A DNA stretch of 64,000 nucleotides, taken from assembly GCA_963704805.1 (NCBI GenBank), contig CAVPHS010000001.1, positions 850,496 to 914,495 on the forward strand, given 5' to 3'. The first letter of the stretch is position 1, and the number at the start of each line of letters is the position of its first letter. The notes below the pieces were generated by a model, which worked only from the letters and a program-made list of their open reading frames with translations, ran no database searches and had not been told where the DNA came from. The translations under genes were made by a program, and so were the position numbers. This document shows, piece by piece, positions 16,938 to 19,900 of the stretch. Source of the DNA: an uncultured Gemmatimonadales bacterium (GTDB taxonomy: Bacteria; Gemmatimonadota; Gemmatimonadetes; Gemmatimonadales; GWC2-71-9).

Positions 16938-19900
16938 ATGATTGCGAATTCCAGCTCGAAGGCAGTCATGAGATGGTTGATCGTCATTGGCACGCTCGCT
17001 TCCAGCGCGGCGTTGCCGACTGTCTCCGAAGCCCAAACGGGTCTCGTTGCCGCGTGGAGTTTCAACGAGGGCACGGGCACCACCGTCGCCGATGCCTCCG
17101 GCAATAACAACACGGGCACCATCTCAGGCGCGACGTGGTCGACGCTCGGCCGCTTCGGCAATGCCCTCAGCTTCAACGGTTCCAACAACCTCGTCCTCGT
17201 CAACAGCTCCGCTTCGCTCAACCTGACGACTGGGATGACGCTGTCGGCGTGGGTGTTCCCCACGGCGGCGCAGAGTGGCTGGCGCACCATCGTACAGCGG
17301 CAGGTCGATGCCTACTTCTTGCACGCCAGCAGTGATGCTGGGCCGCTGCGCCCGGGTACGGGCGGCACGTTCAACGGTCTCGACCGCCATTTCTCGGCCC
17401 CCAGCGCCATCGCGGTCAACACGTGGACGCATCTCGCCGTCACCTACGACGGCGCGACGCTCCGCCTGTTCGTCAACGGCACGCAGGTCGGCACCACGCC
17501 CGCGACGGGGTCGCTCGAGACCAACACCAATCCGCTGCGCATTGGGGGTAACACCTACAACGAGAATTTCCAGGGCCGCATCGACGATGTGCGGATTTAC
17601 AACCGTCCGCTGACGGCCGCCGAAATCCAGAGCGACATGGCTGTGTCCGTGGGTGGTGGCTCGCCACCGCCGCCACCGCCGCCACCGCCGCCACCGCCGC
17701 CACCGCCGCCACCACCGCCGCCACCACCGCCGCCACCGCCGCCGCCGCCACCACCGCCGCCGCCGCCACCGCCACCGCCGCCGCCGCCGCCGCCGCCCTC
17801 AGGGCTCGCGGCCGCGTGGAGCTTCAACGAAGGCACGGGCACCACCGTCGCCGATGCCACAGGCAACAACAACACGGGGACCATCTCCGGCGCGACGTGG
17901 TCGACGCTCGGCCGCTTCGGCAATGCCCTCAGCTTCAACGGTTCCAACAACCTCGTCCTCGTCAACAGCTCCGCTTCGCTCAACCTGACGACCGGGATGA
18001 CGGTGTCGGCGTGGGTGTTCCCCACGGCGGCGCAGAGTGGCTGGCGCACCATCGTACAGCGGCAGGTCGATGCCTACTTCTTGCACGCCAGCAGTGATGC
18101 TGGGCCGCTGCGCCCGGGTACGGGCGGCACGTTCAACGGTCTCGACCGCCATTTCTCGGCCCCCAGCGCCATCGCGGTCAACACGTGGACGCATCTCGCC
18201 GTCACCTACGACGGCGCGACGCTCCGCCTGTTCGTCAACGGCACGCAGGTCGGCACCACGCCCGCGACGGGGTCGCTCCAGACCAACACCAATCCGCTGC
18301 GCATCGGCGGCAACACATACGCCGAGAATTTCCAGGGCCGCATCGACGATGTGCGGATTTACAACCGTCCGTTGACGGCCGCCGAAATCCAGAGCGACAT
18401 GGCGGTCGGCGTGGGCGGTGGCTCACCGCCGCCACCGCCGCCACCACCACCACCACCACCACCACCACCACCGCCACCGCCGCCACCGCCGCCGCCACCG
18501 CCGCCGCCGCCGCCGCCACCGCCGCCGCCACCGCCGCCGCCACCGCCGCCGCCGCCGCCACCGCCGGCCTCAGGGCTCGTGGCCGCGTGGAACTTCAACG
18601 AGGGCACCGGCACCACCGTCGCCGATGCCTCAGGCAACAACAACACGGGGACCGTCTCCGGGGCGACGTGGTCGACGCTCGGTCGCTACGGCAATGCTCT
18701 GAGCTTCAGCGGTTCCAACAGCGTCGTTGTGGTCAGCGGCTCCGCCTCGCTCAACCTGACGACCGGGATGACGCTGTCGGCGTGGGTGTTCCCCACGGCG
18801 GCGCAGAGCGGTTGGCGCGCCATTATGCAGCGGGAGGTCGATGCCTTTTACCTGCACGCCAGTAGCAATGCCGGGGCCCTGCTTCCGGCGGCGGGCGGCA
18901 CGTTCAACGGCGTGGGCAATAACTTCGCGGCGCCGAGCGCGATCGCGGTCAATACGTGGACGCACCTCGCCGTCACATTCGACGGCGGGACGCTCCGGCT
19001 CTACGTCAACGGCGCCCAGGTCGCCACGAAAGCCGCGAACGGGTCGCTCGAAACCAACACGAAGCCGCTGCGCATCGGCGGCAACAGTCCCTACGGTGAG
19101 TTCTTCCAGGGCCGCATCGACGACGTGCGCATCTACAACCGACCCCTGACGGCTGCTGAAATCCAGAACGACATGACAGTCCCGGTCGTGCCGGTCCCGC
19201 CGAAGCTCGTCATCCTCCAGCCCGCAGCCGGGAGTGTGATCAACAGCACGACGGTCGACGTCGCGTACAGCGCTTCCGGTGACCTCACCGAGGTCAATCA
19301 CGTTCATTTCCAGCTCGATGCGAATCCCGAGGTCATGGACCTGACCTTCGACGGGGCGTACCAGTTTACGAACGTGCTGGTCGGCTCTCACTTGCTCAAA
19401 GGATATCTCGTCCGCGCCGACCACTCCCATATCCTGGGCACCGACACATCAGTCACGTTCTCGACGGCGGCGCCAGACTTAACGCCCCCAACCGTCGCGA
19501 TCACCGCGCCCGCCCCCGGGGCGAATCTCACGGGTACCGTCACGGTGTCGGCCAATGCGTCCGACAACTCCGGCGTAATCGCCGGCGTCCAGTTCCTGCT
19601 CGACGGCGTGGCACTCGGGCCGGAGATCACCACCGCACCCTATTCCAGCCCGTGGAATACCGTCACGGCGTCGAACGGGTCACACAGCCTGACGGCCCGG
19701 GCCCGGGACGGCTCCGGTAACCCGACTGTATCGTCGCCGGTCGCCATCACGGTGACCAACAATACGTCGACCGACCCCGCCGTGGTCGGGCTCTGGTCAC
19801 AGGTTCTCACCTGGCCCATGATTGCGATCCACATGAACCTCATGCCCAACGGCAAGGTCCTGGTGTGGGACGACCACACGGATGGCTCGGGTGCGGGAGT

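Follow-up and report, generated by a model that had tools for sequence, protein, structure and literature searches.

In the 64,000-nucleotide stretch of uncultured Gemmatimonadales DNA analysed here (hereafter the window; contig CAVPHS010000001.1, positions 850,496 to 914,495), one forward-strand gene carries two uninterrupted runs of 45 and 47 proline codons, matching exactly the coordinates reported in a first-pass annotation of the same DNA. We consider it likely that these tracts are homopolymeric polyproline linkers, or spacers, between the domains of an exported protein made of three LamG modules, two Ig-like domains and a copper radical oxidase. As assembled, linker 1 occupies positions 17664-17798 (135 nt) with 45 consecutive proline codons (30 CCG, 14 CCA and 1 CCC), and linker 2 occupies positions 18426-18566 (141 nt) with 47 (29 CCG and 18 CCA). 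The codon counts therefore agree with the earlier description of the linkers as purely CCG/CCA/CCC, with CCC occurring once and in tract 1 only.

From the translation, it can be seen that both tracts share the reading frame of the open reading frame (ORF) 16674-21128 (forward strand, 1484 amino acids), and that each is placed exactly at a LamG module boundary. The general boundary pattern is ...VGGGS-Pn-(A)SGL(A/V)AAW..., with the flanks ...VGGGS-P45-SGLAAAWSF at linker 1 and ...VGGGS-P47[10 protein letters not shown] at linker 2. Their assignment as inter-domain linkers is borne out by the translation, the Pfam matches and the DNA repeats, which all show each tract separating LamG modules. 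The features of the host gene are as follows.

16968..21128, forward strand: host gene for a predicted secreted 3xLamG - 2xBig_7 - galactose-oxidase-like protein (ORF, translation, Pfam domains)
16968..17033, forward strand: predicted Sec-type signal peptide, [22 protein letters not shown]|Q (inspection, orthologue N-termini)
17037..17663, forward strand: LamG module 1, Laminin_G_3 (Pfam PF13385, 3 stretches, E 3.4e-100; DNA repeat)
17664..17798, forward strand: linker 1, Pro45 (sequence, Tandem Repeats Finder)
17799..18425, forward strand: LamG module 2 (Pfam, DNA repeat)
18426..18566, forward strand: linker 2, Pro47 (sequence, Tandem Repeats Finder)
18567..19178, forward strand: LamG module 3 (Pfam, best stretch amino acids 680-831; DNA repeat)
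19179..19766, forward strand: two Big_7 bacterial Ig-like domains, bounds approximate (Pfam PF17957, 2 stretches, best amino acids 939-1008)
19767..20837, forward strand: Kelch beta-propeller of the galactose-oxidase/GlxA type (Pfam Kelch, Glyoxal_oxid_N; PDB alignments)
20838..21125, forward strand: GO-like E-set C-terminal domain (Pfam PF09118, amino acids 1389-1483, E 2.5e-24)

The three LamG modules are direct DNA repeats with periods of 762 and 771 nt; modules 1 and 2 are 95.5% identical at the DNA level, and module 3 is 82-83% identical to both. The tracts between them are imperfect period-3 repeats of 135 and 141 nt, which fits their earlier characterization as trinucleotide microsatellites of ~140 nt. 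Tandem Repeats Finder reported 45.3 and 47.0 copies of the period-3 unit with 83-86% matches, and an additional period of 12 for tract 2. Tract 1 opens with (CCA CCG CCG)x5 and tract 2 holds CCA x10, the maximum run of an identical codon being 7 in the former and 10 in the latter. Reading the other frames confirmed that the complement encodes poly-glycine (Gly45 and Gly47) and that the shifted frames give His/Thr/Arg repeats, and these alternative readings account for the several shadow ORFs that overlap both tracts, as the first-pass annotation had proposed. A phase-variable contingency locus that works by switching frame was considered and rejected, since the unit is 3 nt (9 and 12 nt at higher orders) and slippage therefore keeps the frame.

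These two tracts are the only proline runs longer than 19 in the source genome (3.64 Mb, 4 contigs, 65.5% GC), where the next longest run is 19. Since proline makes up only 5.8% of its codons and no other run exceeds 19, a chance origin of both tracts is excluded. A '12-Pro' run at ~42670-42706 of the window is not a third linker but the antisense of a Gly12 run within an FdhD gene; the 12 glycine codons are in frame on the reverse strand of this FdhD/NarQ-family gene (42385-43374), and the forward-strand Pro12 is a spurious frame.

Orthologues and wider distribution

The closest named relative is a Gemmatimonadales metagenome-assembled genome (MAG). The orthologue in the Gemmatimonadales MAG DATBFV01, a short-read assembly (MEGAHIT-style contig names), has at least four LamG modules with spacers of P33 and P30, and its contig starts inside a further run of P>=16. 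On a soil contig the orthologue reads LamG-P49-LamG, followed by the oxidase, and G065, a complete genome from the same genus, has LamG-P16-Ig-P51-LamG. The flanks of these tracts are 74-85% identical. A comparison of tract lengths among relatives, suggested by the first-pass annotation, thus gave between species 45/47 here against 33, 30 and at least 16 in the first orthologue, 49 in the second and 16/51 in the third. In the complete genome, two adjacent paralogous LamG-array genes with mixed spacers are found (G065:C2:266000-275000), the second with a P-rich segment, an Ig-like domain and a P23 linker; this arrangement suggests tandem gene duplication in addition to module duplication.

In the protein collection, the 120 best homologues have proline runs of 9 at most. 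The nearest of these homologues (74-78% identity) have either a single LamG module (~850 amino acids) or LamG modules separated by Ig-like pairs (P0002, P0004, P0006 and P0019 for the two arrangements). To judge from these sequences, LamG modules of the family may be spaced by Ig-like domains, by polyproline or by the two together. The recurrence of the polyproline version in independent assemblies argues strongly against an artefact of assembly. Such an artefact, in which the lengths or the tracts themselves would come from mis-assembly or consensus error in low-complexity DNA, is in our estimate very improbable. It would fit the frequent position of such tracts at contig ends in short-read assemblies and the artefact-like poly-C homopolymers held by six genomes of the phylum. 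Against it, the frame is kept through both tracts and 850 conserved codons follow, complete tracts of 30, 33 and 49 codons at the same kind of junction are spanned by independent assemblies, among them JGI contigs and the short-read MAG with MEGAHIT-style names, and the mixed CCG/CCA pattern is unlike errors of the homopolymer type.

Long tracts are common in the genus. A (CCN)x25 scan matched 28 of its 50 genomes, that is, at least 25 proline codons in a row, and in the source genome it returned exactly the two tracts; in the genus examples looked at, in-frame runs of 25-50 prolines separate extracellular domains, among them Ig-like, PKD-like and FN3-like ones. Across 401 genomes of the phylum, a (CCN)x40 scan found true tracts in seven, four of them from the ten genomes that represented this genus (up to ~60 codons), and a tract of 71 codons was confirmed in one genome of another family. 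Six further phylum genomes matched only through poly-C homopolymers, which were set aside as unrelated or artefactual. These homopolymers (G156:C1:~120551, G171:C1:~208252, G253:C13:~539578, G347:C2:~492813, G348:C3:~2944687 and G120:C9:2-126) are well over 120 nt long, with up to >1000 overlapping pattern hits, and are probably assembly artefacts of long-read MAGs.

Owing to the poly-C matches, CCR rather than CCN was used for the metagenomes, and the (CCR)x40 scan of the JGI metagenomes matched at least 120 contigs. On high-GC soil contigs whose flanking motifs are those of the genus proteins, there are runs of 92, 75, 73, 64, 62 and 60 prolines. Roughly one in two of the metagenome CCR tracts lacks a clear open proline frame; these were not counted as linkers, and some lie on low-GC contigs of possibly eukaryotic origin. 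All these cross-genome counts are samples and floors, many tracts being situated at contig ends. The first-pass annotation had called 45-47 consecutive prolines extreme, which holds against model bacteria but not within this lineage: at least 25 are reached in 28 of the 50 genomes of the genus, and up to 92 on related contigs.

The shorter runs of the source genome (12-19 prolines) are tethers behind lipoprotein signal peptides or linkers in exported enzymes. Three of them, P19, P12 and P14 (C1:1816336, C1:1812758 and C4:174364-174405), come after lipoprotein-type signal peptides (…AC|KSS…, …AAC|SES… and …LAC|ASG…) and are followed by enzymes that, judged by eye, are glucose/sorbosone-dehydrogenase-like and GH16-like. 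These runs look like polyproline tethers between a lipid anchor and an enzyme.

Codon signature, turnover and translation

Genome-wide, proline is encoded by CCG (52%), CCC (33.5%), CCA (8%) and CCT (6%), so that CCC and CCT together make up ~40%, compared with 1 CCC and 0 CCT among the 92 codons of the two tracts. Runs of 2-10 prolines in the same genome contain 25-41% CCC, i.e. they do not avoid it, and 28 tracts found elsewhere in the genus are composed of 591 CCG, 172 CCA, 66 CCT and 23 CCC. Because the short runs use CCC freely and the other tracts of the genus share the bias, the preference for CCG and CCA is specific to long tracts. The statement of the first-pass annotation that mixed CCG/CCA usage partly interrupts the repetition is correct in that runs of an identical codon do not exceed 10, but it understates a sharp codon signature specific to these tracts. 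In Pro-Pro contexts of E. coli, CCG and CCA are favoured, CCC and CCU are avoided, and +1 frameshifting readily occurs at CCC-CCU (PMC12856214). The tracts show the same bias in an extreme form. The exclusion of CCC could plausibly be due to C-runs and CCC-C sites, at which ±1 frameshifts would be more likely and decoding slower.

The flanks of the two tracts, taken as LamG1 versus LamG2 (95.5% identical), differ by 16 synonymous and 7 non-synonymous codons. The CCG/CCA order of the two tracts, on the other hand, is no more alike than that of shuffled tracts (978 of 2000 shuffles reach the observed match). Such scrambled order beside nearly identical flanks indicates, as far as the sequences can tell, fast in-frame turnover in which 3-, 9- and 12-nt units slip or are exchanged unequally.

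It appears that ribosomes read through both tracts, since the domains downstream are under purifying selection: the ratio of non-synonymous to synonymous substitution rates (dN/dS) over the 760-850 codons after tract 2 is 0.22-0.26 against three orthologues that also carry polyproline. A dependence of the host gene on elongation factor P (EF-P) is plausible by analogy, and passage through the tracts should then need the single EF-P of the organism. One efp gene is present in the genome (G000:C1:690478-691032; locus L001 1303-1860), scoring 211.9 bits on TIGR00038 (cut-off 185.8), and a family search of the genome gave no second EFP or EFP_N match. The residue that tips the β3-β4 loop of this protein is Asn, in the motif TPGNL where E. 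coli has KPGKG ('tpgNlraf' versus 'kpgKgqaf', gap-free alignment to solved EF-Ps). With Asn at the position of E. coli K34, a canonical Lys/Arg-tip EF-P of the EpmA or EarP type was rejected. The positive charge of Lys or Arg at the tip is held to be needed.

Across three families of the order, all 28 relatives compared share the loop H(R/H)TPGNLRA. EF-Ps with an Asn tip are a rare, uncharacterised class, which Volkwein et al. report to make up 2.23% of EF-Ps, always with Pro at -2 and in genomes with a deoxyhypusine-synthase-like protein (PMC6544042). Both companions are present here: Pro stands at -2 of the Asn tip, and a deoxyhypusine-synthase-like gene (PF01916, 231.7 bits) lies at G000:C1:323946-324842, not adjacent to efp. 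The Asn tip as a special adaptation of a polyproline-rich genus was rejected, as the same loop occurs in families without long tracts. A bolder proposal, which we regard as rather doubtful, is that this order-wide single Asn-tip EF-P translates 45-92 prolines, either through an uncharacterised activation chemistry or because a charged, modified tip is dispensable; if true, the question of what the EF-P tip does could be settled with the Gemmatimonadales as a natural system. The genome has four tRNA-Pro genes (GGG x2, CGG and UGG). One tRNA-Pro(GGG) call is 93 nt (contig coordinates 42841-42933), unusually long for a tRNA, and may be a mis-call or carry an insertion.

Proposed polyproline spacers and competing explanations

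With a rise of 3.1 Å per residue in the polyproline II (PPII) helix, each tract of 45-47 residues would form a rod of ~14 nm contour length. PPII is the stable form of polyproline in water, with ~2% cis per bond (PMC3101224), and Pro-rich stalks are highly extended (PMC10367597). At ~2% cis, simple arithmetic gives about one kink per tract on average and ~40% of molecules all-trans, i.e. a semi-rigid rod. Such rods would hold the three lectin-like modules and the oxidase apart, resisting compaction and probably proteases, and would do the job that Ig-like domain pairs do in relatives. The tracts would arise and change length through in-frame slippage or unequal exchange of 3-, 9- and 12-nt CCG/CCA units, and their length would be loosely constrained, drifting through slippage. 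Linker hydroxylation is not supported, because a prolyl 4-hydroxylase (PF13640) was not found in a search of this genome.

Several points weigh against the spacer reading. Expression, PPII structure and any spacing function of the tracts are predictions, and the dependence on EF-P is assumed from other bacteria. Equivalent junctions carry anything from 16 to 51 prolines, and relatives have Ig-like domains or nothing instead, so that a precise length is not required and the spread of lengths is equally compatible with near-neutral expansion. The CCG/CCA bias, too, may reflect which units happen to slip and not selection. The main rival, which fits the present data as well as the spacer reading does, accordingly takes the tracts to be near-neutral runaway microsatellites, in which a Pro-rich junction (GGGSPP...PPSGL) expands by slippage and drifts while functioning as a short linker would. 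Besides the variable lengths and the relatives that lack polyproline, it would account for the scrambled codon order despite 95.5% identical flanks, and for a CCG/CCA make-up limited to long tracts, as expected if particular units slip. We nevertheless think this rival improbable, since all 92 codons here, and most of those in dozens of tracts of the lineage, still encode proline with few non-synonymous interruptions; in addition, relatives place two Ig-like domains in the same gap, so a long spacer seems to be wanted, and the cost of translation is expected to select against useless tracts.

The tracts might instead be programmed translational pauses that stall ribosomes to time folding or targeting, or that tie expression to EF-P activity. 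Polyproline in inter-domain linkers has been proposed to give time for folding (PMC12856214), and a tract does come directly after LamG modules 1 and 2. To this explanation we can give very little credence, because two or three prolines pause a ribosome and 45-92 are unneeded, because the predicted Sec-type signal peptide implies that folding should follow export, and because the fast codons CCG and CCA are used rather than the slow CCC and CCU (PMC12856214). Moreover, Ig-like domains replace the tract in relatives.

Pro-rich linkers and stalks as such are already well known, for example the PT linkers of actinobacterial glycoside hydrolases, which are Pro/Thr inter-domain linkers. Like these and the staphylococcal Aap/SasG Pro/Gly stalk (PMC10367597), the tracts described here lie between or beside extracellular domains and vary in length among relatives, and they may likewise be PPII-rich, extended and resistant to compaction. 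The known examples are of mixed sequence with Pro at every second or third position, whereas the tracts here are 100% Pro and encoded by imperfect CCG/CCA repeats. The P8 linker of E. coli AmiB is likewise a stretch of consecutive prolines at the linker of an exported enzyme in an organism that encodes EF-P (PMC13602936, PMC12856214). The longest unbroken run of prolines is 8 in E. coli, 4 in B. subtilis and 27 in human, and bacteria have been called restricted in this respect by a 2026 review (PMC13602936). The tracts here are 5-6 times the E. coli maximum and above the human one, and the EF-P tip is Asn, not Lys/Arg. The bacterial galactose oxidase 9g8h and Streptomyces GlxA 4unm in the PDB are without the N-terminal three-LamG polyproline array present here. 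At the DNA level, there is an analogy with the human FMR1 CGG/CCG repeat and its AGG interruptions, also a long triplet array with variant triplets; unlike that repeat, the present array is coding, in frame and bacterial, and its variant CCA is synonymous.

A literature search found no paper linking Gemmatimonadota with such polyproline linkers. What is new is a habit of soil Gemmatimonadales mapped over a whole genus, tracts of as many as 92 prolines included, and the sharp CCG/CCA signature confined to long tracts; to these may be added the combination of apparent read-through with an Asn-tip EF-P. That bacteria are restricted (PMC13602936) is a generalisation contradicted by a lineage whose conserved, selected genes routinely hold 25-92 prolines in a row. 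This free-living soil lineage offers natural substrates for the study of EF-P and the ribosome on very long proline tracts, and, with such tracts combined with an order-wide Asn-tip EF-P, what the loop tip does can be tested directly. In protein engineering, the tracts would be natural, genetically compact spacers of roughly 10-30 nm; in genome assembly, they repeatedly cause contigs of Gemmatimonadales MAGs to break.

Host gene, oxidase and neighbourhood

Although the longest ORF begins at 16674, the true start is likely the ATG at 16968 (alternative ATG 16938), because GAAGG lies 6 nt upstream of it and the orthologue N-termini align from the signal peptide on. The GC content at third codon positions (GC3) of the host gene is 0.83. 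By eye, the signal peptide has a charged n-region, a hydrophobic core and a small-x-small cleavage motif, and three orthologues (P0019, P0002 and L015) have equivalent hydrophobic N-termini ending in ...A(R/H/Y)AQ(T)GLVAAW.

Both parts of an AA5-type copper radical oxidase, the Kelch propeller and the C-terminal E-set domain, were found, with Pfam matches to Kelch_1/4/6, Glyoxal_oxid_N and GO-like_E_set. The C-terminal 460 amino acids align end to end with the bacterial galactose oxidase (PDB 9g8h, E 7e-54), and Streptomyces GlxA (PDB 4unm) aligns with the same part (E 3.9e-50), the two alignments covering 364-455 residues. In the alignment, the motifs FCAG, WY, YHS and VTH stand opposite FCPG, GY, YHS and VTH of 9g8h. 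We take the aligned Cys, Tyr, Tyr-His and His motifs to be the putative copper ligands and cross-link, as in fungal galactose oxidase.

The 2.1 kb upstream of the oxidase gene (14843-16937) gave no Pfam match for five candidate ORFs and no Rfam match; this interval has no ORF supported by GC3, and its GC content is normal (0.61-0.73). With KdpD/KdpE upstream and cstA downstream on the opposite strand, the host gene stands alone.

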